DNA from: a bacterium
GTDB taxonomy: Bacteria; UBA9089; CG2-30-40-21; SBAY01
DNA length: 58,260 nucleotides
Assembly: GCA_040757115.1 (NCBI GenBank)
Contig: JBFLYA010000003.1
Coordinates: 1-58,260, forward strand
Direction: 5' to 3'
Position 1 is the first letter of the stretch; each line of letters begins with the position of its first letter. The notes beneath the pieces were generated by a model, which saw only the letters and a list, made by a program, of their open reading frames with translations, searched no databases and had not been told where the DNA came from. The translations under genes and the position numbers were made by a program. Shown here one piece after another: positions 2,410 through 16,236 of the stretch.

Positions 2410-2646
2410 TTACCCACATGGACTGAGATAGGAAGTATTCAATATTAAACCATTGGAAGCACATATTTGTAAAAATTCTTCAATCTCCCTTTGTTCACCC
2501 CATAAATTAACCTGTCCATTAGAACTTACACTTACAGTGAGAATTCTTTTACCATACCTGCGCAAACAATGATTATGATTAAAGTTTTCACCCGATAATA
2601 TGTTTTTATCTCCTCTTTTTTGCTGAAAAGATTTCTGTTTTTCCAT
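2410..2646 (-). CDS. Small hypothetical protein ending -SPCG, last gene of the Ubl operon
   Basis: 78-aa ORF 50 bp after the vWA gene, GGAG RBS. Confidence 0.55.
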   Translation of the reverse strand: MEKQKSFQQKRGDKNILSGENFNHNHCLRRYGKRILTVSVSSNGQVNLWGEQREIEEFLQICASNGLILNTSYLSPCG

Positions 2647-2696
2647 TGTCATTCTCTCCAAAGTTAATCATCTTTCAAAAATAGGTATTTCCGAAT

Positions 2697-4535
2697 TTAC
2701 TTTGTTTGAATATCTTCATCATCCTCAAGTAAAAGCAACTCATGGTCTTCTTTGGAATAATTATCTTCTTCAGATGGTTGTTGAGATAGATTCAATTTAT
2801 CTGGAGAAGAAGGTGGCTGTTCCCATTGTGGAGGAACCCCACCTATCCCTGGTGGATATTGACCTGGTTGTTGCGGATAATTTACTCCCCCTATTGGTTG
2901 CTGAGGGGGCGGAGGCGGATAATATCCACCTGCTCCTGATGGAGGTGGATATTGACCTGGTTGTTGTGACCAACCTCTTCCTCGAGTTGGCTGTTGAGGT
3001 GATGAAGGATGGGAGCGGATTCCTTTAATACGAAGTCCAGAACCACTATCCTGTGGTGGAGCTATAGGTGGTTGTTGTGGTGATGGAGGTGGATAAGGGG
3101 GCCATGGATGAGGGCCACCGTATTGTGGTGGATACTGACCCGGTGGAGGAGGTGGATAGTAAACTGGTTGTTGAGGTGGTTGAGGTCCATAATAAGTTCC
3201 TGAAGGCGGAGGAGGTGGACTACCCCATTGAGGAGGGCCACTATATGGCGGTGGATATTGGTCTGGTGGAGGTGGATAATTCCTTACCTGTGGTGAGGTT
3301 GATATATAAGTAGGTTGACCATAGGATGGTCGTTCTCCGATTCCATCAGAAGAAGAAACTCCATGTCTTATAGGTCTCCGAACAGGAGGTGCTATGGGAG
3401 GTATTAATCGTTCTCTCAGTAAAGTATAGATATGGGGAAGAAAGTAAAAGAATATAATGATGCCTAACATAATTGTAAAAGTTATCAGTCTCTCAGGTAT
3501 AATTTCCTGATGAAGAATTTGCTTGCGTTTTTCAGGATCTTCTGGTAGTATTAAACCAGGAATATTAGAAAAATTAATCTTATAAGGGGCTGACTGTACA
3601 TTGTTACTAAGTTGGACCTTATATTCTACAGCATCAACCAATTTTTTCAATTCAAGATTAGTTTTAAAAACAAGTTGATACTCCTTAATAACCCCTAATT
3701 GTATATCTTGATAAATTTGAATAAGTCTATCGCTTGAAGGAGCATAGTAGTAATCACCATGAGACAAAAAAGCAAAATCTTTCAAGATATTCTCATCTAT
3801 ACCAGAATCATTTCTATATCGGGGATTTCCAAATCCTATAGTATAAATAGGAATATTTACCTCTTTAATCTTTTCACAAACTGGATTCACATCTGTCAAA
3901 CCTGTTTCCCCTTCTCTAACTCTAACATCATTCTTTCCATCAGTCAATAAAATAACTATCTGTCTCCCTCCTTGTGGTGATATAGATTCTAATGCTCTGA
4001 TTGTAGCAGAGTATAGGGCTGTGTTATAAGTTGTTGCTTGAAGAAATTCTATTTGGTTTTTCAGTTTTTCCTTATCAGAATAGAATACTATCCTAGAAAC
4101 TTCAGGTACATAACTATTAAAAGCCATTATTGCTACTTTATCGTAGTCCCGCATATTTTCAATAAAATGATAAGCTGATTCTTTAGCAGCATCTATTTTT
4201 CTCTTCCCTTGACCACTATCATTAGCCATACTTCCACTTGTATCTATTGCCAATACTGCAATCAATGGAGTATTACTTTCTCCGATAATAGTTATCTCCT
4301 CGGGAGTTCCTATGTTCTTACCATTTTCAAAAAGAGTAAAATCTTCTTTGACTAATTTTTCACTATAAGGCTTTTTCTCCTCATTAAGAACGGAGACATA
4401 AGCTTTCCCATGAGGACAGTTATCCATTTTCATTTGTCGCAAATGAACTGATGAGATTTCCTCAGCTAAACATCGATTAATCATCATAAAAAGCATCACC
4501 ATTAATATTAAACTAGTTTTCCTTCTCAAAAACAT
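2697..4535 (-). CDS. Single-pass membrane protein: signal peptide, vWA domain, TM helix, long Pro/Gln/Tyr-rich tail
   Basis: N-terminal hydrophobic signal; MIDAS motifs DTSGSM, NTALY, LLTDG; TM LITFTIMLGIIIFFYFL; tail with repeated QYPP/PPPPP. Confidence 0.88.
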   Translation of the reverse strand: MFLRRKTSLILMVMLFMMINRCLAEEISSVHLRQMKMDNCPHGKAYVSVLNEEKKPYSEKLVKEDFTLFENGKNIGTPEEITIIGESNTPLIAVLAIDTSGSMANDSGQGKRKIDAAKESAYHFIENMRDYDKVAIMAFNSYVPEVSRIVFYSDKEKLKNQIEFLQATTYNTALYSATIRALESISPQGGRQIVILLTDGKNDVRVREGETGLTDVNPVCEKIKEVNIPIYTIGFGNPRYRNDSGIDENILKDFAFLSHGDYYYAPSSDRLIQIYQDIQLGVIKEYQLVFKTNLELKKLVDAVEYKVQLSNNVQSAPYKINFSNIPGLILPEDPEKRKQILHQEIIPERLITFTIMLGIIIFFYFLPHIYTLLRERLIPPIAPPVRRPIRHGVSSSDGIGERPSYGQPTYISTSPQVRNYPPPPDQYPPPYSGPPQWGSPPPPPSGTYYGPQPPQQPVYYPPPPPGQYPPQYGGPHPWPPYPPPSPQQPPIAPPQDSGSGLRIKGIRSHPSSPQQPTRGRGWSQQPGQYPPPSGAGGYYPPPPPQQPIGGVNYPQQPGQYPPGIGGVPPQWEQPPSSPDKLNLSQQPSEEDNYSKEDHELLLLEDDEDIQTK

Positions 4536-4541
4536 CTTTCT

Positions 4542-5489
4542 TCACCTCCTAATTTGTTCTCTTGGAGGAAGATTTGAAGAATCACCTGACGAACTTCTTA
4601 CTTTCAGAAATCTAAAGCAGCTACTGCCCAAACAAATAAGGTCTCCATGTTGAAGCTGTTGCTTTCTATCAATTTTATGACCATTTACATAAGTTTCCTC
4701 TCCTTGATTTGGTAGCTCATAAGGTGAGATAAAAAACTGTCTTCCTTCCCAAGAGATTGTTGCATGAAGGGAATCAATAAGTTCATCTCCGACTATTTGA
4801 ATGTTAGCCTTTGAGGAAAATCTACCTGGGTCTCCACTACCAATAATATTTCGAGCGTCACGGTAGAGAGACTTTTTATATTGCTCGCCATACTTTGATG
4901 ATTTATTCCCTTCTACCCCTTGCAAATAAGCATCTGACCCCAAGATACAAGCAAAACTTACTCCTGAAGCAATAGATGCTCCCAGAATAGTAATTCCCCA
5001 TGCCATAGAGACAGTTGGACCAAATATGGTACCCAGAAAGTGATGTATAAAACCTCCTATCAATCCTCCAATAGCTCCACCCAGAAGTCCATTAAGTGCC
5101 CGCCGCATTGACCTCCATCTTATCGCCTCTGCTATACTTACTAAAACACCTAAGGTGGACCATCCAAACATTCTTCCAAAATATGGAATTGTATCTTTGG
5201 TTGCTTCATACAGATAGAAAAATACTACTCCACCTAAACTACCACCAATGATTCCAGTTAACGCTCCCAATAGGAAATCACCAAGACAGGTAGTAATACC
5301 TGAATCCATAATTCTTTCAAGGGCACAAACAAAAGAACCAATGAATATTCCTACCAGACAACCCACAGCAACAGCGGTAATTAGTGGAGAAAATGAAAGG
5401 TCAACTATCCAACACGAGGTAAACCAGCCCAAGAGTCCTGCCAGACAACCTGTAACTCCAAAATAGTATATACTTCTAAAAAAAGTCAT
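4542..5489 (-). CDS. Multi-TM (GxxxG-rich) protein with C-terminal FHA-like domain
   Basis: About six Gly-rich hydrophobic helices, then IIGS...SLHATISW...TYVNG...LQHGDLICLG. Confidence 0.8.
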   Translation of the reverse strand: MTFFRSIYYFGVTGCLAGLLGWFTSCWIVDLSFSPLITAVAVGCLVGIFIGSFVCALERIMDSGITTCLGDFLLGALTGIIGGSLGGVVFFYLYEATKDTIPYFGRMFGWSTLGVLVSIAEAIRWRSMRRALNGLLGGAIGGLIGGFIHHFLGTIFGPTVSMAWGITILGASIASGVSFACILGSDAYLQGVEGNKSSKYGEQYKKSLYRDARNIIGSGDPGRFSSKANIQIVGDELIDSLHATISWEGRQFFISPYELPNQGEETYVNGHKIDRKQQLQHGDLICLGSSCFRFLKVRSSSGDSSNLPPREQIRR

Positions 5490-5492
5490 CTT

Positions 5493-7499
5493 TTATACAC
5501 CTCTTATTTGTGCTTCTAATTCCCTTATTTTTTGTCTTAAGGGAGCATTAGTCTTTGTTCTTTTGACTTCTTCTATAATTTCACTCAACCATTGAGGCAT
5601 TGTAAGAGGAAGCATACTGTAAAAATTAGTTGCCTCAAGAGCCAAAAGCGATTGATAATCATAGATAAGGGGGTCATGATTTGGTTTAAAATCAGCAATA
5701 GCATTTTTCAAATGGTCTATATTTACCTTTTTGGTCTTTGCATATTCAGCCGCGCGTCTTACAATGACCTCAATAGCGGAACCAGTCAAACCTTCTGTCT
5801 CAACGGTTACAAAATCAAAGTCAATACCATCATCATATTCTATTTTTACCTTCTTTTCCATCACTTCAAAGATACTCTTTCTATCCTCCTTATCTGGGGG
5901 TAAAAGGGGTATAACCTTATCAAATCGACGAAGCATAGCCTGGTCCAGAACATCTGGTCGATTAGTTGCGGCTACCCAAATTATCTTACCTCGATTAGAA
6001 TTATCCGACATAAATGTTAATATCTTAGCAAAAATACGCTGGCTTACTCCACTATCTCGACTATCTGTCATCCGAGAACCAAAAGCTTGATCAACTTCAT
6101 CTACAAATACTACTACTGGTGACAGTGCTAGTAAAATATCAAATACCTTAGAAAGATTCCGTTCACTTTCTCCTACCCACATACTGCGTATGTCCTTCAT
6201 TTTCACTAAGTTCATCGTTGCCTCTTTAGCCAGTGCTTCTGCCAGAATAGTTTTACCAGTCCCTGGAGGACCAACTAACAAAATTCCCTTAGGAAGTAAT
6301 TCTACTATGTCTAAAAGGATATTATCGTCTTTTATCTCTTTTTTTTGCTCAAAATATCGTTTTATATCAGCCACTTTCTCCTCAAGAAATTTCTTCACAT
6401 GGTCCAAACCACCTATCGAGTCAAAGCCATGTTTTGGCTCCATCACTTCTAACAAGTTATTACTTTCTGCTTCAATAATTTCCTTCTTCTTCTCTTTCAC
6501 TAAATCATAACTTACATTAATTCCCAGAGCTTTAGCAGAGTTAAAAAGATAATCTAAATCTTTAAGGTTAAACCCTGCGGTTATTTCAGCCAGTCCTTCC
6601 AATGTAGTCCCTTCTTCTAATTTTATTTTAGGCTTAATTTCTTCTAATGCCTTCACAACCTCTTCTAAAGTGGGAATATCTTCACCTGGCACCTTTTCCT
6701 TCTCTGATGTTGAAACTTCTTCTGAAGAGGGAGAACTTTTTTCTTCTGGCATATTTTTCTTTTCAGAGGAAAGAAATCTTAGAAATGCCAATCGTGTTTT
6801 TGCATCTGGTCGATCTATTTTAATAGCCTTACAGCCATAATGAGAATAGATGTCTGGATGGACTGCACCAAGATTTGGAGTTACTAATAGAACTATGTTA
6901 CCAGTATCCTGTCTAATCTTATAGTTCGAAGCCCACCGCTGTAATGTCTCAATCAAGATAATAGCATCTTTATCTTGAGTCCCTGCAGGCAGCAATTTAT
7001 CTACATATTCGATAACGATGGCAGTGCGATGTTCCTTTTGTAACAGAAGATGTTCAAAATTAGGAAAGACTTTCTTAGGGTCTCTGAATGTTTCATCCTG
7101 GGATTGCCTAGCTTGCCTCCCAAATCCTTCAACAACTTTGCGTGACTCTGTTGAAAGGTTTTTTAGTCTTTCTTCATCAGATTTTTCTGGTTCTTCTTCC
7201 TCACCAGCACCAAAAATAGGTAGAGCAAATCGTTTAAGTATGTCTTTTTTTGGCACTAAACCCTCTGGATAGGTAATTCCAGCTGACTGGCAATAGAATA
7301 AGATAATATCATACTTTAATGCCAGTCGCATGGTTAAAAATTCACGCAAGGATAATTTACCTTTTCCTGGCACATAGATAAAATCATTCACATTAAAGTA
7401 GAGAAGAAACATATGAGAGGCATTAGCATTATAGACATTATTAAGTTCTTCCAGCCAGGCAGGAGATTCCCAATTCTCTATAATATTAGTTTCTGACAT
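5493..7499 (-). CDS. AAA+ ATPase, classical clade (Cdc48/Ycf46-like, degenerate N-terminal module plus intact C-terminal module)
   Basis: FDSIGGLD, Walker A GPPGTGKT, pore loop MWVGESE, Walker B VFVDEVD, SRH AATNRPDVLDQAMLRRFD. Confidence 0.92.
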   Translation of the reverse strand: MSETNIIENWESPAWLEELNNVYNANASHMFLLYFNVNDFIYVPGKGKLSLREFLTMRLALKYDIILFYCQSAGITYPEGLVPKKDILKRFALPIFGAGEEEEPEKSDEERLKNLSTESRKVVEGFGRQARQSQDETFRDPKKVFPNFEHLLLQKEHRTAIVIEYVDKLLPAGTQDKDAIILIETLQRWASNYKIRQDTGNIVLLVTPNLGAVHPDIYSHYGCKAIKIDRPDAKTRLAFLRFLSSEKKNMPEEKSSPSSEEVSTSEKEKVPGEDIPTLEEVVKALEEIKPKIKLEEGTTLEGLAEITAGFNLKDLDYLFNSAKALGINVSYDLVKEKKKEIIEAESNNLLEVMEPKHGFDSIGGLDHVKKFLEEKVADIKRYFEQKKEIKDDNILLDIVELLPKGILLVGPPGTGKTILAEALAKEATMNLVKMKDIRSMWVGESERNLSKVFDILLALSPVVVFVDEVDQAFGSRMTDSRDSGVSQRIFAKILTFMSDNSNRGKIIWVAATNRPDVLDQAMLRRFDKVIPLLPPDKEDRKSIFEVMEKKVKIEYDDGIDFDFVTVETEGLTGSAIEVIVRRAAEYAKTKKVNIDHLKNAIADFKPNHDPLIYDYQSLLALEATNFYSMLPLTMPQWLSEIIEEVKRTKTNAPLRQKIRELEAQIRGV

Positions 7500-7502
7500 T
7501 AA

Positions 7503-9239
7503 TTAACTCCTTTCTTTTTCTTGAGGACTAATTTGTTTAACCATAGAGGTAGGAATAGTTTCTTCTAAAAGTTCTACAAAATGTGGGGAGATACAAACTT
7601 CACCTTGGGTATCTACCTCTACAATCCCTTTACCCTCAATCGAAAAAGTTTTGATAACCTTATTTTTACCAATAGTTTCTATTTCTATCTTATCATAGCC
7701 CATTTGGTGGAGTGATAGTAATATTCTATCTACTACTATATCTTGCAAAGTTCGCTCATCTTGAATAAGTTGTGGAATTGTTCCTGTTCCTTCTTTTACG
7801 CCAGTTACCTTATAATTTAAGTATATGCCTCGATTTTTTAACTCATCAAAAAAATGCTGTAACTCGGGTAGACAGGTAGCCTGACCTGCCTCATCGGATT
7901 TAAACCCATCGAGGTCATACAAAATTTCTCCCTCCGCGGAAACATTGACCCTAAAAATTTTCTCTCCTTTTATAGCTTTGTAATATATTCGCTCTTTTAT
8001 TTCAGACTTTTCAATTTCTGTATATTTCATTATTTGAAATACCTCTTCTATCTTTTGACTAATATGTGCCTGAAGATTTTGATTGAGGGTATTAATTGCC
8101 TTTTCTTTAATCTGATTAAATTTCTCCTGAGCATATTTTGCCTGGGACAGAGCATCATCTAATCTACCAGTGCGAAACATCTCTTGAGCTTCAGCTAAAG
8201 TCTGTTTTGCTTCCTCAAAGTTGTCTTTCAAAGTAAGTCTAACAATCTCTCTAACAGATTGAAGTGACTCTTCTTCACTCTTTTCTAACATTTCTATAAT
8301 AATCTCAGCATCTTCTACAGCTTTATCAAAATCTATTTGAATCTGGTTTGTTCTTTTTTCCCAGGTTTCTTTTTCTATCCTCAACCTATTACTTAAGTTA
8401 GACAAATGTTTAGTTATATCTTCCATGTGCTGCCAAACTATCGTGTAATTCTGGTCTTTCCAATTAGTGGTTATATCTCTAATCTCATCTTCTATTCTGC
8501 TAATCTCCTGTTGATTATTAGAAGGAAAAGAACCTGCAATTGTCTCTGTTTCTAATAAATCCAACTCCGCTTTCATTATCATTTCATGAATTTTCTCTGT
8601 CTGCTGATAGTGCTGTTCCTGAAGAACATAAGCTTTCTTCATTGTCTCTTGAAGCACACTTAAGGCTTCTTCTGCAAGACTATAAGAAGATGGAAATTCT
8701 CCTCTCTCTAAATTCTCTTTTCCTCGCTGTTCAATATTAACTATCCTATCTATTGCCTCTTTTTCTACAAATGGCAATCTCTGAACTTTTTCTAACATAA
8801 AATCCACTTCTTGCCAATTCATTGAAATTATTTGTTTAGCTGTTCTTTCCTCAGCCTCCTGGCCTAAAAATTTCAATTCTTCCCTAAATTGCTTTTCTTG
8901 CTGGAGATATTTCTGTCTTCTTTGTTCAATCTCCTGTTGCTCTTTAATAGCCTGTTTATGAGTCTGAAATCGTAATTTTTTATCTTTTCCTCGCTCTTTT
9001 TTGATAACTTCTGCTTTTTTCTGATGTTCTTTAATTAATTTAGTAACTCTCTGTTTTTCTTTCTCAAGCATCTTTTTTACTTTTTCTCTTCGTTTCTGAG
9101 CTATCTCTTGAGCGGTGTTATTAACTACTTCATATAACTTACAACCACAAAAAACCAATCCTTTGGCACCATAATAAACTCCGCTTACTGCTGCCCCTAA
9201 ACAAATTCCTATTACATCTGCTCCCCCTGCACTACTCAT
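7503..9239 (-). CDS. Long coiled-coil protein with C-terminal DUF2997-like segment
   Basis: E/K/Q-rich helical body; FRVNVSAEGEILYDLDGF...TCLPELQHFFDELKNRGI near the C-terminus; AAGGAG RBS; 3 bp from the ATPase start. Confidence 0.7.
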   Translation of the reverse strand: MSSAGGADVIGICLGAAVSGVYYGAKGLVFCGCKLYEVVNNTAQEIAQKRREKVKKMLEKEKQRVTKLIKEHQKKAEVIKKERGKDKKLRFQTHKQAIKEQQEIEQRRQKYLQQEKQFREELKFLGQEAEERTAKQIISMNWQEVDFMLEKVQRLPFVEKEAIDRIVNIEQRGKENLERGEFPSSYSLAEEALSVLQETMKKAYVLQEQHYQQTEKIHEMIMKAELDLLETETIAGSFPSNNQQEISRIEDEIRDITTNWKDQNYTIVWQHMEDITKHLSNLSNRLRIEKETWEKRTNQIQIDFDKAVEDAEIIIEMLEKSEEESLQSVREIVRLTLKDNFEEAKQTLAEAQEMFRTGRLDDALSQAKYAQEKFNQIKEKAINTLNQNLQAHISQKIEEVFQIMKYTEIEKSEIKERIYYKAIKGEKIFRVNVSAEGEILYDLDGFKSDEAGQATCLPELQHFFDELKNRGIYLNYKVTGVKEGTGTIPQLIQDERTLQDIVVDRILLSLHQMGYDKIEIETIGKNKVIKTFSIEGKGIVEVDTQGEVCISPHFVELLEETIPTSMVKQISPQEKERS

Positions 9240-9536: not shown

Positions 9537-10127
9537 TTATAAAGCTCCTTTTGTTGCCTCTTGAGAAATCCTCATCCTGTTCTTCAAATTTTTAACTTCA
9601 TCATTTAAGTCTTTGATTTGCTTTTTCAAGTTTTCATTTTCTGTCTTCAGTTTGTTACACTCATCTACAAGTTCATTATTGACCTTCTGTAAACTCTCCT
9701 TATCTGCATTCACTTTCTTAAGTATTTCTTCTATTTCTTTTACCTTATCTGCTTTCTGGTGATTTTGTTCTTCACTTTGTTGAAGTTTTTGAGATAAGAT
9801 TTCATTCTCCTTTGCTTTTTGAGAGATTAAACCTTCCTTTTCTTTTAATCTCCGCTGAACTTCATTAAGTTCAAATTGAAGGCTATTTATTTCTTGCCTA
9901 TGTTGTGTCTGTAGTATAGTAATCTGACTATTTAAAGAACGATTTTGAGTAGTTAGATTTTTTATTTCAGCCTTATAGCGTTCTATTTCAGTATGTAATT
10001 GTCGAATCTCTTTTTCCTGTCCTCCTAATAAGAGCGATGGGGTCCTACTCATATTAGAAACAGGAGTTGGTTTTCTTTTTCTTCGTACCCGTATATCTTT
10101 TATTTTCACACTCGAACTATTTTGCAT
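9537..10127 (-). CDS. Coiled-coil protein
   Basis: 196 aa; basic N-terminus followed by continuous heptad-like sequence; GGAG RBS. Confidence 0.75.
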   Translation of the reverse strand: MQNSSSVKIKDIRVRRKRKPTPVSNMSRTPSLLLGGQEKEIRQLHTEIERYKAEIKNLTTQNRSLNSQITILQTQHRQEINSLQFELNEVQRRLKEKEGLISQKAKENEILSQKLQQSEEQNHQKADKVKEIEEILKKVNADKESLQKVNNELVDECNKLKTENENLKKQIKDLNDEVKNLKNRMRISQEATKGAL

Positions 10128-10315: not shown

Positions 10316-12208
10316 TCATTTGTTTTCTTCTTTCAAACCTTCATTTCTCCTTACCCCCTCTTCACCACTATCGACATTCTGTAACGACTGGTCTTCCTTA
10401 TTTACATCTGATGGATTAGACATTTCTTCTTTTTTTACACTTGGTTGAAGTGGTTGTTGAGGTGAACCCTCATCCTTTTTTACGGTTGGACCTTTTTTTT
10501 TATCTTCCTTTTCTCTCTTTCTTGTGTTTGTATTCCAATTATTTTGCTGGCCCTTCTTTCTTTCTTCTTGGATTGTAACCTTAACCACCTTACTCCACTC
10601 CCCCTTTTCATCATTACAGCCAATAGTTCTAATTTTATACATAAGGTTTTTCTTTTGTTTTGGTGACCACTCATCGCTATATTCTTTTGAATTCCACGAA
10701 TATATATCTTTTAGTTTTTTAAAATCCTCCTCTCCCACTTTTACCTGAATTTCATAATATTTAACGGAACTATCTAAATTATCATTCCATTTCAAAATCA
10801 CAATTTTGCCATCTTTTTCCAGCTCAGCGTTGAATCCCGTAGGTGCTTCTAGTTTAGGTGGTATTGGTTCCTGTGGTATTGGTGACGAAAACTCTTTCGT
10901 ATAAGATTTATCATTTTGTAACTTGAGTGTTAAAGTATATTTGTAGTCTTTTCCCGGTAAGACATCTGTATCTTTATACTGCCCATTAATTATCTCTTGA
11001 TGACTAAGGGTTAGTGATTTATCATGCTCATTAGATGATGTTCTCTTTAAAATTCCGTCTTTGATTTCTTTTTCATCTACTCCTTTCAACTCCCATTTTA
11101 CAACTAATCCATCTTTAGATAGTTCGGGGCGCAATATATCAAATATATCATTAGAGACTGGATTACTTAGATTATCCTTTTTTTCTTGAGGGAATTCAAC
11201 AGGCCGTTCACTAGGGATTTCAACAGGTTGGAACATAAGGAAGATAAGGTAGATAAAGATGACAGCCATTACAATCATTCCACACCAAAGGATTATTTCC
11301 ATCACATCCTGGAAAGTAATTTCCTCCAGAGATTCAATAAGCTCACCCCAAATTTTTTTAATTGGATTAGGTTTTTTAGGACGGTATTGAGGTTCAGTTT
11401 TCTCATTAGATTGCCGATTTTGTCCTTTTGTAGGAATATTATTAACTCTGCGAGTTGAATAGTTATCCATGCAAGGGGAATAGTCATCCAGATAAAATTC
11501 AGCTCTACATTCTGAGTCTAACCTATCATTTTCCCAGATAAAGTATCCTGCTGTCTTCTTTTTAGGTTGAATAACCAAAGCTACATGCCAGGGCTGCATA
11601 AAATTGGTTTTCGCTAACTCTCGGTCAGGAGGAGAGAGTGAGATATCGTGACTTGGATGACTATGATACCAACCCACTTGTTTAAGATGTGAATACTTCT
11701 CTTGTTGTAGGTTTTTTACCCTATTTTTTTCTTGAGGGGTAAAGACAAAGTGGTCGTATCTGGCATTGTCATACTTCATAGGAATGGCTTCCTCAATATG
11801 AACCATATATGTTTCTCTTCCCATTTTCTTTACTGGAGGAGGCACATACCCTAACAAAATTCCTCCTGTTTCATTAGGAATTTTTTCTTGAGATTGAAAA
11901 AAGATTTTTTTGTAGACCCTCTTCACACAAAAAATTTCTACTGGAGAATTGGATACCTGCCAGGGAATCGTCTCGCCACTTATCTCTGTCTCCTTACTAT
12001 TTCGTATCCCTTTTATTCGTAGATTAGTAACATTTTGGTTCTCTTTCTCTTTACCCAATTCTTTTTCTTTCTCAGGGGGAGGTGACATAGCTGATTGAGA
12101 AGATACTTGACTCTGTCTGGGAATAGAAGGTTGTATAGATCCTATTTTATGTTCCCACTGTTCTAATCTTCTTTGTAACCAATTTTCTTCCTTTTCCTTC
12201 AAGTCCAT
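10316..12208 (-). CDS. JAB/MPN+ (Mov34) metallopeptidase with TM helix and C-terminal FN3-like domains
   Basis: NETGGILLG and JAMM motif GWYHSHPSHDISLSPPD (HxH-x7-S-x2-D); TM ILWCGMIVMAVIFIYLIFLMF; YKDTDVLPGKDYKY and APTGF...VILKW...YKIRT...GEWS. Confidence 0.88.
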   Translation of the reverse strand: MDLKEKEENWLQRRLEQWEHKIGSIQPSIPRQSQVSSQSAMSPPPEKEKELGKEKENQNVTNLRIKGIRNSKETEISGETIPWQVSNSPVEIFCVKRVYKKIFFQSQEKIPNETGGILLGYVPPPVKKMGRETYMVHIEEAIPMKYDNARYDHFVFTPQEKNRVKNLQQEKYSHLKQVGWYHSHPSHDISLSPPDRELAKTNFMQPWHVALVIQPKKKTAGYFIWENDRLDSECRAEFYLDDYSPCMDNYSTRRVNNIPTKGQNRQSNEKTEPQYRPKKPNPIKKIWGELIESLEEITFQDVMEIILWCGMIVMAVIFIYLIFLMFQPVEIPSERPVEFPQEKKDNLSNPVSNDIFDILRPELSKDGLVVKWELKGVDEKEIKDGILKRTSSNEHDKSLTLSHQEIINGQYKDTDVLPGKDYKYTLTLKLQNDKSYTKEFSSPIPQEPIPPKLEAPTGFNAELEKDGKIVILKWNDNLDSSVKYYEIQVKVGEEDFKKLKDIYSWNSKEYSDEWSPKQKKNLMYKIRTIGCNDEKGEWSKVVKVTIQEERKKGQQNNWNTNTRKREKEDKKKGPTVKKDEGSPQQPLQPSVKKEEMSNPSDVNKEDQSLQNVDSGEEGVRRNEGLKEENK

Positions 12209-12218
12209 ACTTCACCTC

Positions 12219-13079
12219 TTATATTTCAAGACTTTGCTTTTTAGTAGATTTCTCTGATGAATCCTTGTGCAATACTATTTTGACCCTTTTCTCTCCTAGT
12301 TTTAAAGGAAGTGTCAGCCCTACTCTACTTAAAGGAAAGAAGTCAGGATGTTTCTCTTTATAAGCCAAATACCATTCTTTGGCTTTAAGATTCATCCTCG
12401 GGTGGTCATCATCGAGGTTTACAGACCAATATTGTATCAATTTACAACACTGGACACAGGCATAAATCAAGTTACTGTCCAGTGGATACCATTCGAAGAA
12501 TAAGCATACATCCCTTTTCTTATCCATATTGGCATTAGGATGAAAAATATCGGTTACCGCGATTACAACTGGTCGAAGAATAGGATAATCTCGTGACAAT
12601 GTTAATCTAAGAATATGTTCATCTTCCTTTATTATTGGTTCTTTCTTATCGTCTAATCCACTAATTCCCTTTATCTTCATCAAAATAATTTCAATCTCTC
12701 CTGGAGATAGCCCCTTCACTCTTAGATGTTCAGGATTAGCCGTTGCTAACCGTAATAATCCAGCCCGGTCTTCTTGAACCCGGTTCGTGTTCTCATAGGC
12801 AGCTACTTCTGATGGGTCATATACTGAAATAACACTTCCTGGTGGGACACCCATGTTTGACAAACTATTATCAAGAAAGAGCTCCTCTTGATTCCAGAAA
12901 ACAGAGTACTGAACCTCTTGTCCCTTTTCATCATAGAGACGGATAGGATATTCTGTTCCTTGAGAGGTTCTGATAAGGTCTCTCAAGACATCTATCAAAG
13001 ATGTCTCATCATCCACTTCTACACTATACTCCTGCTGACCTTTTGGTGTAGTTACTACAAAAATAAAATTATTAATCAT
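12219..13079 (-). CDS. Ubiquitin-like (beta-grasp) domain fused to E2/UBC domain
   Basis: aa 1-94 YSVEVDDETSLIDVL...LDNSLSNMGVPPGSVISV; E2 motifs DYP..RP, IFHPN(180-182), Cys192, W and MNLKAKEWY. Confidence 0.85.
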   Translation of the reverse strand: MINNFIFVVTTPKGQQEYSVEVDDETSLIDVLRDLIRTSQGTEYPIRLYDEKGQEVQYSVFWNQEELFLDNSLSNMGVPPGSVISVYDPSEVAAYENTNRVQEDRAGLLRLATANPEHLRVKGLSPGEIEIILMKIKGISGLDDKKEPIIKEDEHILRLTLSRDYPILRPVVIAVTDIFHPNANMDKKRDVCLFFEWYPLDSNLIYACVQCCKLIQYWSVNLDDDHPRMNLKAKEWYLAYKEKHPDFFPLSRVGLTLPLKLGEKRVKIVLHKDSSEKSTKKQSLEI

Positions 13080-13110: not shown

Positions 13111-14226
13111 TTAACTTGACTTTTGAACGGAATAAGCAGGAAAATCCTCTTCAATCTTCCCCATTTCTCTCATTAAGAAGATTATCAAGATACCATTTGT
13201 TGGCTCCAAATCCAGAAGAGTTTCCGTTTTCTTTATGCTGAGTTTTCTTTCTGCTATTCTCTTTATCAAAGCGGGATTAATTGGTAATACGCAGTAGTTA
13301 TTGCCCACCTCTTTTATTTCAGGGATAAAAACTGGTAATAAATCTACTATTGATACATCTGCTGGCAGCCGTCCTGAATATAGTTTCAACTGAGCAAACA
13401 GAAATGAAACAGCAAATACTGTAACGATAGGTCGAAGAACTAATTCTTCACAAGGAAAGATATTCTGTTCGTAGAGTCGCTTTTCGTTGTCTATCCAAAT
13501 TCTTTTCTCTGGATGAACTAACCGATAATCTGTTATTCGAGATGCCTCTCCCTTATTCCATACTTCATTTGTTAATCTTAGGAAGTCAGGATGGTTAAAT
13601 ATTTGACTTACGGGCTGAAGACAATCTACATCAATCTCCACTCCTCCTTTTTCTCCAAATGTAGTTATCTTCATTTTAATAGACATAGGGTATGCAGTAA
13701 TACTCTCCCCTTCTTCTAAAACAAATGGAGTAGGGTCTTGTGCTTGAAGTAATTGTTTTCTACCCTTAACTAAAATGAAATTATTCCACTTAACATCTTG
13801 TTGTAGATATTGATACAGAGAATAGATAGGATACCTTCCATCCGTAGGGAAATATAATGAAAATTTTTCCCCCTGCCTATCTTTGCTAGTCCAATTAAGG
13901 ATCTCAACTACATCAGGGCTTTTAATCAATAGAAGATTTTCATGATGTCCCCTTAATTGTTCAAGAGAGAGTTTTAGATTTTTAACAATACCCCAGGAAT
14001 TACGGTTGGGAGAAAAAACAGCTACATTAGTTTGCGCTTCTCTCCACTTAATTTCAGCTAAAAGTTGTGTTTTTATGTCTTTCAAAGAGGTATTTGATGG
14101 AAACCCTCTTCTTTGTCTAAAAAGTGATGGTTGACCTTGCAACAACTCAATCCACTGGCACAGTTTATCTTCTTGTATTATCTTCCAATTACCTTCATAG
14201 GTGTATATATTAGGGAATAAATTCAT
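13111..14226 (-). CDS. Probable tandem ubiquitin-like (beta-grasp) repeat protein
   Basis: Up to four ~80-aa units: FPSNTSLKDIK..LSLEQL; FPTD..LEEGESITAYP; IDVDCLQPVSQI..RLYEQNIFPCEELVL; LPADVSIVDLL..TETLLDL. AGGAGG RBS. Confidence 0.55.
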   Translation of the reverse strand: MNLFPNIYTYEGNWKIIQEDKLCQWIELLQGQPSLFRQRRGFPSNTSLKDIKTQLLAEIKWREAQTNVAVFSPNRNSWGIVKNLKLSLEQLRGHHENLLLIKSPDVVEILNWTSKDRQGEKFSLYFPTDGRYPIYSLYQYLQQDVKWNNFILVKGRKQLLQAQDPTPFVLEEGESITAYPMSIKMKITTFGEKGGVEIDVDCLQPVSQIFNHPDFLRLTNEVWNKGEASRITDYRLVHPEKRIWIDNEKRLYEQNIFPCEELVLRPIVTVFAVSFLFAQLKLYSGRLPADVSIVDLLPVFIPEIKEVGNNYCVLPINPALIKRIAERKLSIKKTETLLDLEPTNGILIIFLMREMGKIEEDFPAYSVQKSS

Positions 14227-14250: not shown

Positions 14251-14922
14251 TTAACTCTTCGTCTTTTTATAACTTCTGAGATTAATTTTGCACTCAGGAT
14301 TGAGGCATCTCCAGCGATTAGGTACTCCCCAACAATCTATACATAAGATAGTATCACAGTTAGGGCACTTTCTTAAGTCCAAGCTCTGTCCATCGCTTCC
14401 ACTATTTCTTCGACAGAGTGGACATATATAGTTAGGTATCAATAGAGTATTACCAAGTGCCTCTGGTATAGGTTCAAATTGAGTAGATGGAATAGCTGTT
14501 CTGACTACTTTATCTTTTTTACCATACGCTGGGAAAAATATAATCGTGAGCACCCCTATTATTACTCCTACCGCACTTGCTATTAAAATCAGAGAATGCT
14601 CATCAATGAATTTGTTTAATTCTACTTGAGAGATTTGTAGAATCAAATAAAAGAACAATAGAAAATTTCCTATTCCACAACCTATACCTTGCACTAGAAC
14701 AGTTAGAAGTCTCCACCTTTGAACCGACCTCAGTAGAAGAGCAATAACACATCCTACTACAAATTGGAGAATACCAAATACTATCCATGGAACCTTCACC
14801 CAAAAGAGTATCCCTCCTAATATTGCACCAAATAAGCTTATCACTCCTGAAACACCAAAATTTCTAATCTTATCCATATTCTGTTTTAATCTTCTCATGA
14901 ACAGATTTTTTCTCCTTTTCAT
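14251..14922 (-). CDS. Multi-TM membrane protein with C-terminal RING-like zinc finger (putative E3)
   Basis: About four TM helices, then C-x2-C-x15-C-x2-C-x4-C-x2-CW-x7-C-x4-C (aa 167-211); ATGA overlap with the E1 stop. Confidence 0.75.
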   Translation of the reverse strand: MKRRKNLFMRRLKQNMDKIRNFGVSGVISLFGAILGGILFWVKVPWIVFGILQFVVGCVIALLLRSVQRWRLLTVLVQGIGCGIGNFLLFFYLILQISQVELNKFIDEHSLILIASAVGVIIGVLTIIFFPAYGKKDKVVRTAIPSTQFEPIPEALGNTLLIPNYICPLCRRNSGSDGQSLDLRKCPNCDTILCIDCWGVPNRWRCLNPECKINLRSYKKTKS

Positions 14923-16187
14923 TCAAAATTCATAACCTCCATTTCATCACCAGTCAATTCATAGAATTTACTTATACTTTTCTTTCCATCATCTATTACT
15001 GCCTCTAAGATATCCAGTTGACGCAGTCCTCCTTGTGTTAAGGTCAAATTAAGGAAATCAACATTTTCATCTAACTCACTCACAGACTTAGCTATTTCTT
15101 GAGGTGTCCCACAATGAGAGCAACTTTGATGCTCTATAAATACATACGGGGATTGATAAACCTTCTCAGTCTTTTTGCAATTAGGACAGGAGGCAGAGAT
15201 TACCAAATCATACCAAAGACTAATTCTTGCCTTCTTACCCAAATCCTTTTTAACTTTTTCAAGTAACTCGCCAATAGTGGTAGAATTAGAGTTAAACTCT
15301 TTAACCTCAATTATATCTTTTTCTGGGATAGGGGAACGAATTTGATGAATAAGACACTTTGGGTTACGGCGACGAGTAAATACTTCCATTTTATGGTCTT
15401 GTGTATCTATGTGAATAATCTTATTCAATAATGGTGTTATTTCTTCATTATTCATTAAAATTTTAAGTCCTTCTTGTACCTGAAGAGCACCAATAAGAGA
15501 AGCCATCATAGGTGTAGAAGGGACAAATCCTCTTTTTTCAGATTCTCTCTCAATTTCAGCGCAGATAACCCCTCTGCCTGTTCCTTTTTCCAGAATCTCC
15601 TTTACCATCTCTGATGATAGAGAACAAGCATAACAAGCTCCTGCAGGAACATCAAAAACTGTTACTGCTCCCCGTAAGACATTAACATCATTTAACCCGG
15701 CATCAATCCATGGTTTTTTAACCCGGATACAGGCATCGTTTAAAATAATACGGGGCAGGCGGCTGTCAAAATCACAAAAAATAAGGTCCATTCTACGCAA
15801 TACTCCTAAACCAAGTGAAGCAATATTCCCATGAAAAGTAGCTACTTTAACATCAGGATTAACTTCCTTTATTTGCTCAGCTACTACCTCTACTTTAGAA
15901 CGGCCAATATCTCTTTGGCGAAACATTATAGACCTGGTTAAATTAGAGAGCTCTATAATTTCCTTATCAACAAGTAAAATCTTACCACAGCCAATAAGAG
16001 CTAAGTTTTTAGCCACTTCATTGCCAATGGCTCCTACTCCACCTATCAGAGCCGTACTATTCTTAACCACACCTTGTTTCCACCCGTGGATAGTTTCTAA
16101 TCTAGAATATCTTTCTTTATCCTCATCCTCTTTATCTTTTTTACTGATAGAAATTTGCTTTTTGAGTGTTTTGGGTATTATATCCAT
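14919..16187 (-). CDS. ThiF/MoeB-family E1-like adenylyltransferase with C-terminal zinc-ribbon extension
   Basis: RYSR, GGVGAIGNEVAKNLAL, ELSNLTR, GRSK, CYAC, putative catalytic Cys in VICAE, PKCLIH, CPNC/CSHC. Start placed at ATG 16187 (GAGG RBS, downstream of the promoter). Confidence 0.93.
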   Translation of the reverse strand: MDIIPKTLKKQISISKKDKEDEDKERYSRLETIHGWKQGVVKNSTALIGGVGAIGNEVAKNLALIGCGKILLVDKEIIELSNLTRSIMFRQRDIGRSKVEVVAEQIKEVNPDVKVATFHGNIASLGLGVLRRMDLIFCDFDSRLPRIILNDACIRVKKPWIDAGLNDVNVLRGAVTVFDVPAGACYACSLSSEMVKEILEKGTGRGVICAEIERESEKRGFVPSTPMMASLIGALQVQEGLKILMNNEEITPLLNKIIHIDTQDHKMEVFTRRRNPKCLIHQIRSPIPEKDIIEVKEFNSNSTTIGELLEKVKKDLGKKARISLWYDLVISASCPNCKKTEKVYQSPYVFIEHQSCSHCGTPQEIAKSVSELDENVDFLNLTLTQGGLRQLDILEAVIDDGKKSISKFYELTGDEMEVMNFE

Positions 16188-16207
16188 TTGTGCCTCATTA
16201 TGAAAAT

Positions 16208-16236
16208 ATTTTACCACAAATTTTGTCCTTTGTCAA
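16208..16236 (-). promoter_or_regulatory. Sigma-70 promoter of the Ubl operon
   Basis: TTGACA-17 bp-TAAAAT with extended -10 TG, 20 bp upstream of the E1 ATG. Confidence 0.8.

Follow-up and report, generated by a model that had tools for sequence, protein, structure and literature searches.

Alanine at the predicted terminal glycine position of a bacterial ubiquitin-like domain fused to an E2 enzyme: a candidate alanine-ended modifier

A terminal glycine counts as a defining trait of ubiquitin-like modifiers (Ubls). Fusion of a Ubl to an E2 enzyme, with release of the Ubl by a JAB peptidase, is already in print for bacterial systems, as a prediction by Kaur et al. (2020) and as a demonstrated activity in the published account of the Bub systems. 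Here we analyze a Ubl-E2 fusion protein in which the place of the terminal glycine is taken by alanine. The protein is encoded on the minus strand, at positions 12219..13079, of a 58,260-nucleotide stretch of bacterial DNA (contig JBFLYA010000003.1 of assembly GCA_040757115.1, GTDB lineage UBA9089), which is referred to below, in its entirety, as the window. Judging from comparative sequence and structural analysis, we put at roughly 0.5 the probability that this protein is the precursor of a modifier that is released by JAB and ends in Ala93.

Among the described systems that are closest to this locus, the FtsH ternary systems (Kaur et al., eLife 2020; PMC7159879) contain a tri-ligase that consists of a JAB peptidase, an E1, a RING-type E3 and a protein combining the Ubl with the E2, and is coupled to vWA, FtsH-type AAA+ and alpha-helical proteins; release of the Ubl by JAB is predicted, and the terminal residue of the Ubl is not discussed in the main text of that article. 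In Type I Bub (6E.1), as described in the preprint of Ye et al. (bioRxiv 10.1101/2024.11.21.623953), the JAB of BubCD frees BubA from the BubAB fusion right after a conserved glycine. The operon of Caldiarchaeum subterraneum, in the account of Hennell James et al. (2017; PMC5654768), encodes Ub, E1, E2, a small RING finger and Rpn11/JAB, and the Ub ends in ..GG followed by a nine-residue propeptide that is removed by Rpn11. In Type II Bil, according to the preprint of Chambers et al. (bioRxiv 10.1101/2023.09.26.559546), BilC trims BilA at ..V-A-G97|A98, an extra residue blocks the E1, and the glycine of BilA is reported to be universally conserved. Finally, the CD-NTases of Type II CBASS (cyclic oligonucleotide-based antiphage signaling systems) are described as ending in either glycine or alanine, and the G432A substitution lowers conjugation without abolishing it (PMC10449767), which bears out the statement in the original prediction, made from the sequence of the window alone, that CBASS tolerates an alanine-terminated substrate. 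Within the accounts cited here, this CD-NTase, which lacks the beta-grasp fold, is the only natural alanine-ended substrate. Literature phrase searches, which did not cover Burroughs et al. 2011 and 2012 or any supplements, so that an earlier description is possible, returned no report of an alanine-ended beta-grasp Ubl; 'Ubl-E2 fusion' and its variants retrieved only the Bub preprints, and 'C-terminal alanine' combined with ubiquitin-like, adenylation and bacterial retrieved only the Bil preprint.

The product of the Ubl-E2 gene is a 286-aa protein in which a ubiquitin-fold domain (aa 1-~90) precedes a classical UBC E2; the open reading frame (ORF) begins with ATG, with a GGAGG site located 5' of it. 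In terms of the features mapped onto the minus strand of the window, the Ubl comprises residues 1-93 (12801..13079), and the short linker together with the E2 comprises residues 94-286 (12219..12800, stop codon included). Residues 86-100 read VYDPSEVAAYENTNR, with a glycine-free junction, ..SEV-A93-A94-YEN..; A93 is encoded by GCT (12801-12803) and A94 by GCC (12798-12800), each of these codons being one base away from a glycine codon. Thus, the fused Ubl indeed lacks a terminal glycine, and codon 94 is GCC, as originally noted; given that both residues are alanine, the absence of glycine stands whichever of the two is the terminal position. The catalytic motifs of the E2 are intact, with the HPN motif (H180-P181-N182, 12534-12542) and the catalytic Cys192 (12504-12506) encoded on the same strand and with H180, N182 and Cys192 invariant in 28 sequences.

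The folds of both halves are directly supported by structural comparison. An AlphaFold2 model based on a 95-sequence alignment (mean predicted local distance difference test score, pLDDT, of 89; predicted template modeling score, pTM, of 0.70; a single-sequence model, with a pLDDT of 39.7, was unusable) was compared with 48,161 PDB representatives using VIA-align. Residues 1..~90 of the model superpose on the TINCR Ubl (7mrj_B, Z 12.1, root mean square deviation 1.4, 75/75 residues), SUMO2 (8oi3_D, Z 11.2), ubiquitin (8q7r_U, Z 10.2) as well as ISG15 and Rad60-SLD2 (Z ~10-11), and residues ~91-251 superpose on the UBC E2s 4ds2_B and 1zdn_A (Z 12.5 for both). The top Foldseek matches are all eukaryotic E2s, the best one being 5v0r (E 1.3e-6). 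At the sequence level, the Pfam UQ_con match is weak in the window protein (E 0.0033), yet this domain is present in 25/28 aligned relatives, whereas the beta-grasp families YukD and Rad60-SLD are detected in 5/28 and 2/28 of these, respectively; a phmmer search with residues 1-94 against the PDB sequences yielded chance-level matches only. The original prediction allowed for the possibility that residues 1-94 might not adopt a beta-grasp fold; the ubiquitin fold was found here with both the model and the VIA-align superpositions.

The residue homologous to Gly76 of ubiquitin is A93 and not A94, which the original prediction took for the terminal position, and four independent lines of evidence agree on this assignment. 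First, in the sister split system, where the Ubl and the E2 are separate genes, we read the Ubl tails in 7 of the 11 loci examined (in the 4 others, the gene is on the other strand): 3/7 end in ..IHPVVVAG, and 4/7 have 6 to ~40 residues beyond that glycine; counting from the conserved glycine that precedes the last strand (G81 of the window protein), the terminal glycine is at +12, that is, at A93. Second, three proteins with the reversed domain order, E2 then Ubl (P0075, P0041 and P0029), stop exactly at this glycine (..VAG, ..TAG, ..LAG) and hence need no processing. Third, a profile from which the window protein and its three nearest relatives had been left out aligns with residues 1-94 end to end (E 2.7e-23), and its consensus, '..siaGa', places G on A93 and 'a' on A94. 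Fourth, in the superposition, residue 74 of ubiquitin falls on residue 91 of the model, which puts G76 on A93. The position occupied by A94, immediately after the glycine, holds a small residue in 33/33 fusions (A 15, S 7, G 6, T 3, V 2). The predicted JAB cut, based on the profile, the superposition and the ends of the stand-alone and reversed relatives, lies between A93 and A94 (codons 12798..12803, minus strand).

To place the window protein within its family, we performed an exhaustive HMMER search of 1.84 billion representative proteins, which retrieved 120 proteins at E <= 0.001. With a profile of the Ubl portion, the stored proteins fall into 33 with the order Ubl then E2, 3 with the order E2 then Ubl, and the remainder, which are stand-alone E2s. 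A word-based search with the Ubl-E2 protein found only the query itself, and one seeded with the family alignment found mostly stand-alone E2s and not a single new fusion. Across the 33 Ubl-E2 fusions, the terminal column contains glycine in 26 and alanine in 7, namely P0001 (the window protein), P0002, P0008, P0011, P0038, P0121 and P0045; the alanine count is 6 if P0121, a member of the 90% cluster that also contains P0038, is left out. For P0111 and P0063, the MAFFT and HMMER alignments differ by one column, and the reading of these two rows took more than one alignment into account. When the 94 Ubl columns are ranked by conservation in the 27 aligned fusions, that of residue 93 comes fourth (G 20, A 6, V 1), so that the identity of the junction residue is not a matter of chance. 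Two of the alanine-type proteins, P0002 and P0038, are encoded on contigs of 40.6 kb and 54 kb, respectively, and P0003 on one of 52 kb. In two other proteins, a different domain precedes the E2: P0125 (PF14446 + PF00179) has a prokaryotic RING finger fused ahead of the E2, and P0120 has an N-terminal Cys-rich stretch in place of the Ubl.

On the maximum-likelihood tree of 36 rows, the alanine state requires 3 changes, and a single alanine clade, a group that was named after the tree had been seen, is rejected by the approximately unbiased (AU) test (p 7.2e-6). Thus, alanine appears to have arisen at least three times in Ubl-E2 fusions. The window protein groups with P0002, P0008 and P0011 (support 94/82). 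Within this clade, where the proteins are only 30-32% identical, just 12 positions of the Ubl are invariant, V92 and A93 among them, the linker right behind V92-A93 varies by 0-17 residues, and H180, P181, N182 and C192 are all invariant. The alignment of orthologs at the junction that was suggested along with the original prediction gives the following: the nearest three relatives read V-A-[A/S], and the alanine is invariant in the clade. A conserved tail combined with a freely varying linker and an intact enzyme resembles a recognized cleavage or activation site rather than a decaying one.

The Ubl-E2 gene is part of a minus-strand string of ten genes, around which there is no GC island. The E1, a ThiF/MoeB-type adenylating enzyme of 432 aa with C-terminal Cys pairs (14919..16217; Pfam ThiF E 4.8e-46, residues 44-289), shares 35-37% identity with its counterparts in the split systems and in a Fibrobacteraceae locus described below. 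Its residues R95, D151, C195/C198, C219 and C288 are invariant in the comparison with five or six relatives, and the sole departure from five glycine-type E1s is a Gly-to-Ala replacement at residue 173 (WIDAG for WIDGG). The JAB/JAMM metalloprotease (10316..12208, 630 aa; Prok-JAB E 8.2e-8, JAB E 1.1e-5) contains one transmembrane segment (aa 299-332), a long C-terminal region and an intact metal site, H182-S-H-x7-S-x2-D195; it is predicted to be both the processing and the deconjugating enzyme. Next to the E1 gene is the gene for a 223-aa membrane protein (14251..14922) with ~4 hydrophobic segments in a hydropathy scan and a C-terminal CPLC..CPNC..CIDCW..C..C pattern. This protein is a possible RING-type E3: there is no Pfam RING match, and the similarity to the Prok-RING_1 proteins of the split systems is weak (hhalign E 0.0024, probability 12%).

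A 371-aa orphan (13111..14226) is encoded between the membrane Cys-rich protein and the Ubl-E2 protein. On the other side of the Ubl-E2 gene, beyond the JAB gene, the minus-strand string continues with genes for a 196-aa coiled-coil protein (9537..10127), with coiled-coil-type matches only; a 578-aa protein that belongs to no family (7503..9239), for which an Atlas search yielded nothing usable; a 668-aa AAA+ ATPase of the CDC48/FtsH/PAN kind (5493..7499; Pfam AAA E 2.5e-35); a 315-aa FHA-domain protein (4542..5489; Pfam FHA E 3e-9); and a 612-aa vWA-domain protein (2697..4535; Pfam VWA E 1.5e-16). The NCBIfam matches of the AAA+ protein, CDC48 at 1.5e-45 and FtsH_fam at 3.7e-37, are both far below the respective cut-offs; the protein contains a single active AAA domain (aa 406-530), and its N-terminal 350 aa have no Pfam match.

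A glycine-type relative of this locus was identified in a metagenome-assembled genome of the family Fibrobacteraceae. One contig encodes a Ubl-E2 fusion with the junction ..IGVG-A-PEMS, a JAB with a transmembrane segment, a membrane FHA protein and a vWA protein, and ~10 kb further, the E1 followed by a 223-aa transmembrane protein with a Cys/His-rich end; the two membrane counterparts map to 2550-3221 of locus L033 (223-aa protein) and 3118-5271 of locus L029 (JAB). In blastp comparisons of the window with the Fibrobacteraceae proteins, the E1s are 36% identical (1e-80), the Ubl-E2 proteins 32% (4e-33), the JABs 24% (2e-13) and the FHA proteins 36% over 185 aa (7e-21), with a weak match for vWA (37% over 75 aa, 7e-5). 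Because this contig carries a matching gene set, the combination of E1, membrane Cys-rich protein, Ubl-E2, membrane JAB, FHA and vWA appears to be conserved across two phyla. No second Ubl of the family was found in the Fibrobacteraceae genome, the other profile match being an E2 alone, so that the fused glycine-type Ubl is the sole candidate modifier there. Contig C121 of the same genome (5565-7207, plus strand) carries the E2-only match (E 8e-15) and, ~600 bases upstream of it, a second E1 match (E 1.9e-16); this E1/E2 pair may represent another conjugation system, one without a Ubl of the family.

Taken together, these observations are compatible with the following scenario. The system would make its own modifier as the N-terminal part of a Cys-using E2. 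The JAB/JAMM protease would cut between A93 and A94, yielding a 93-residue Ubl that ends in ..Glu-Val-Ala and a free E2; the E1 would then adenylate Ala93 at its carboxylate, and from the Cys of the E1 the Ubl would move to Cys192 of the E2 and on to target lysines, a modification that JAB could reverse. Under this scenario, alanine would have replaced the usual terminal glycine in the lineage of the window and would work as a terminus. The E1, the membrane Cys-rich protein, the Ubl-E2 and JAB would form a membrane-associated system coupled to the AAA+ ATPase and the FHA and vWA proteins. Both the putative E3 and JAB are membrane proteins in the window as well as in the Fibrobacteraceae locus; combined with a CDC48/FtsH-like ATPase, this arrangement suggests tagging and extraction of targets at the membrane.

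The original prediction offered three alternatives: an alanine-terminated modifier released from a Ubl-E2 polyprotein, a non-conjugating variant, and a modifier encoded elsewhere. The first of these is best supported, given that the junction is conserved, that alanine recurs along with intact E2, E1 and JAB motifs, and that the glycine-type relative lacks any other Ubl of the family; the other two persist as rivals. The homologous terminal position, the conservation of the junction, the recurrence and retention of alanine and the intact catalytic motifs are, like the two folds, directly supported by the data. Nevertheless, several considerations weigh against a released, alanine-ended modifier. 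Cleavage, its exact site, adenylation of the alanine terminus and conjugation are all steps that we only infer. Glycine is strongly preferred in the family (26/33), and in the single cited test, the part of PMC10449767 that concerns CBASS, the change of glycine to alanine lowered conjugation. The E1 shows no obvious enlargement of the pocket. In the model, residues 89-96 are helical and head toward the first helix of the E2 instead of forming a free extended tail, and the confidence drops at the junction (mean pLDDT of 72 for the block 91-100). Locus searches for P0121 (in genome contigs) and for P0006 and P0011 (in metagenome contigs) gave no match, so the genomic context of the alanine type is represented by the window only. 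Finally, the window operon contains an extra candidate Ubl gene, the one for the 371-aa orphan, unlike the glycine-type Fibrobacteraceae locus (n=1), and an additional gene of this kind would be expected had the fused Ubl ceased to serve as the modifier.

This last point leads to the strongest rival, under which the fused Ubl would have lost the function of a modifier and would remain attached to the E2 as a module that regulates the E2 or docks, for example, on the membrane partners, the E1 or the AAA+ ATPase; the E2 would be charged with another Ubl. The rule of glycine in the family, the structured, helical junction in the model, the additional candidate Ubl gene and the reduced conjugation of cGAS G432A reported in PMC10449767 would all fit such a module. 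However, the invariance of V92-A93 at 30-32% identity, with free variation of the length that follows, fits a recognized tail better than a mere linker; furthermore, alanine emerged no fewer than three times while the E2, JAB and E1 motifs were kept, and the small residue after the site was retained. On balance, we view the module as somewhat unlikely, although it is the competitor to be taken most seriously.

If the modifier is encoded elsewhere, it could possibly take either of two forms, the 371-aa neighbor or a Ubl from a second system in the same genome. When all six frames of the genome were scanned with the family profiles, just two Ubls and two E2s were detected, those of the window fusion and a pair on contig C414. 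The latter belongs to an operon that encodes an E1, a Prok-RING_1 protein (E 1.8e-7), a YukD-like Ubl (E 6.7e-13), a UBC E2 and a JAB, with the coordinates, in locus L027, of 89-1261 (E1), 1265-1474 (Zn protein), 1495-1761 (Ubl), ~1994-2500 (E2) and from 3016 on (JAB). The Ubl of this operon is a separate gene, the product of which ends in ..VVAG, and the proteins are 33-37% identical to those of the window. Split systems of this type are present in 13/25 species genomes of the phylum, including that of the window, whereas the Ubl-E2 fusion is found, among these 25 genomes, only in the genome of the window. On contig C30 of the same genome (2857-5397, plus strand), there is also an 847-aa frame with several weak matches to the family Ubl (whole-sequence E 0.0073, with no single domain significant).

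The 371-aa neighbor could be a modifier in its own right, namely, a multi-beta-grasp pro-Ubl that JAB would trim after Gly356 (..LMREMG|KIEEDFPAYSVQKSS) and that the E1 would activate, with the fused Ubl being an accessory or a second modifier. This protein possibly consists of ubiquitin-like domains in tandem, and in its tail, ..ILIIFLMREMG356-KIEEDFPAYSVQKSS, the 15 residues behind Gly356 could be a propeptide. The tail ends in ..YSVQKSS, as originally described, but this ending does not disqualify the protein as a modifier, because extensions after the glycine also occur in other pro-Ubls, where they reach nine residues in Type II Bil and consist of nine in Caldiarchaeum, according to the accounts in bioRxiv 10.1101/2023.09.26.559546 and PMC5654768. 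Gly356 is 10 residues from the start of the beta5-like strand ILIIF, a spacing, read by eye, that is the same as that from V83 to A93 in the Ubl-E2 protein, and the Atlas search leads to polyubiquitin and USP-type UBL arrays (feature score 0.84-0.86, TM 0.33-0.39). However, these feature scores are below 0.9 and the TM values low, the hhalign probability against the family Ubl profile is 0.3, and there is no Pfam, NCBIfam or PADLOC match, so that a beta-grasp fold is a tentative assignment for this protein. In addition, Gly356 is known from one protein: a word-based search found only the query, the gene is present solely in the window's genome among the 25 genomes of the phylum, and a search of the Fibrobacteraceae genome with this protein as the query gave no match, the locus there being one that works without such a gene. 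We therefore regard the 371-aa protein as an improbable modifier. A single frame that would encompass the 371-aa gene and the Ubl-E2 gene was considered and rejected, the two being separated by a TAA stop, 31 bases and the GGAGG site.

The weakest rival attributes the alanine codons to faulty sequencing or assembly and holds that the true gene has glycine, for instance, GGC at codon 94, a possibility raised in the original prediction; it draws on the single-base distance of each codon from a glycine codon and on the lack of any contig over this stretch in run X1, the probable source (run X3 likewise gave none, and such gaps prove nothing), but is very unlikely, because a 222-nt contig from run X2, another sample of the same study (12734-12955, depth 4.2, 97% identical), retains both alanine codons and the three closest homologs, which come from other sources, carry V-A-[A/S] at the same place. 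This check relied on the assembled contigs of the sequencing runs, not on the raw reads; the X2 contig differs from the window in 6 letters (5 of them listed, at 12783, 12853, 12854, 12858 and 12924), none of them within 12798-12803.

A stronger version of the released-modifier scenario would hold that a classical E1-E2(Cys)-JAB cascade acts here on a true beta-grasp modifier for which alanine is a functional, selected C-terminus, that this alanine evolved repeatedly from glycine, and that it may insulate the window system from the ..VVAG system of the same cell. We consider this version doubtful. If it is correct, each E1 and each JAB would handle only its own tag, or else the conjugates would be protected from deconjugating enzymes of foreign or paralogous origin, and the glycine requirement of Ubl activation and JAMM cleavage would be a lineage-tuned preference and not a rule. 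An alanine-ended beta-grasp Ubl paired with a eukaryote-like E2 would be a natural test of the stringency for glycine in E1 pockets and JAMM proteases, and would also allow one to ask whether pathway specificity can be set by the terminal residue in a cell with two Ubl systems. If, conversely, alanine merely inactivates the tag, the protein would contain a decayed or repurposed Ubl domain, which is of modest interest. The analysis also documents a small, cross-phylum Ubl-E2 family with a fixed junction of Gly/Ala plus a small residue and with membrane-bound partners.

Compared with the described systems, the window locus most closely resembles the tri-ligase of the FtsH ternary systems as presented by Kaur et al., with Ubl and E2 in one protein, separate JAB and E1, and a vWA component. 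The AAA+ protein of the FtsH ternary systems is described as having two FtsH-type AAA+ domains, the first one inactive; in the AAA+ protein of the window, one active AAA domain follows an N-terminal 350-aa region without a Pfam match. The differences are several. No MoxR was detected among the 41 of the 43 window ORFs of >=120 aa that were scanned, the only related hit being a weak bpMoxR match (E 0.023) in the CDC48-like protein. Unlike the FtsH ternary systems, the window has no EAD1 ahead of the Ubl, as the fold starts at residue 1, and no caspase-like effector in the Pfam scans; its JAB and Cys-rich protein are membrane-bound, and an FHA protein and the 371-aa orphan are present. Given the lack of MoxR, EAD1 and a caspase-like effector and the membrane-bound JAB and Cys-rich protein, we do not assign the system to the FtsH ternary class. 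As in Type I Bub, the Ubl is an N-terminal fusion to the E2 and a JAB/JAMM peptidase is part of the system; however, the preprint describes Bub E1 and E2 without the catalytic Cys (oxyester chemistry), a JAB fused to the E1 (BubCD), the DUF6527 serine protease BubE and a conserved glycine at the junction, whereas the E2 of the window has the invariant HPN motif and Cys192, its JAB and E1 are encoded separately, Pfam scans of the operon found no DUF6527, and the junction has alanine. The use of Cys by the E2, the separation of JAB and E1 and the absence of DUF6527 show that this is not Bub. With Type II Bil, as described, the window shares the small residue that follows the cut site, but the E1 of the window has a single ThiF domain, so it is not Bil either.

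The natural conjugation substrate of Type II CBASS, as described in PMC10449767, is comparable in that it ends in glycine or alanine and in that its conjugation is reversed by a JAB; unlike the Ubl of the window, this substrate is an enzyme that does not have the beta-grasp fold, and its E1 and E2 are combined in a single protein. The PADLOC E1-E2 models match only the E1 part of the window, and the PADLOC scan of the window gave no match to a CD-NTase or effector model; the window system is not CBASS. With the Caldiarchaeum operon, to the extent that it is described in the cited article, and with the C414 operon, the window shares a MoeB-like E1, a UBC E2 with HPN and Cys, and a JAB; in both of the former, the Ubl is separate and ends in glycine, and no AAA+, FHA or vWA protein is encoded in the C414 stretch examined. 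In terms of the classical prokaryotic Ubl systems, the window encodes the UBC E2, the ThiF/MoeB E1 and JAB, and has Ala93 where the mature glycine terminus would be. Thus, what appears to be new in this locus is the conserved and recurrent alanine at the glycine position of a fused Ubl.

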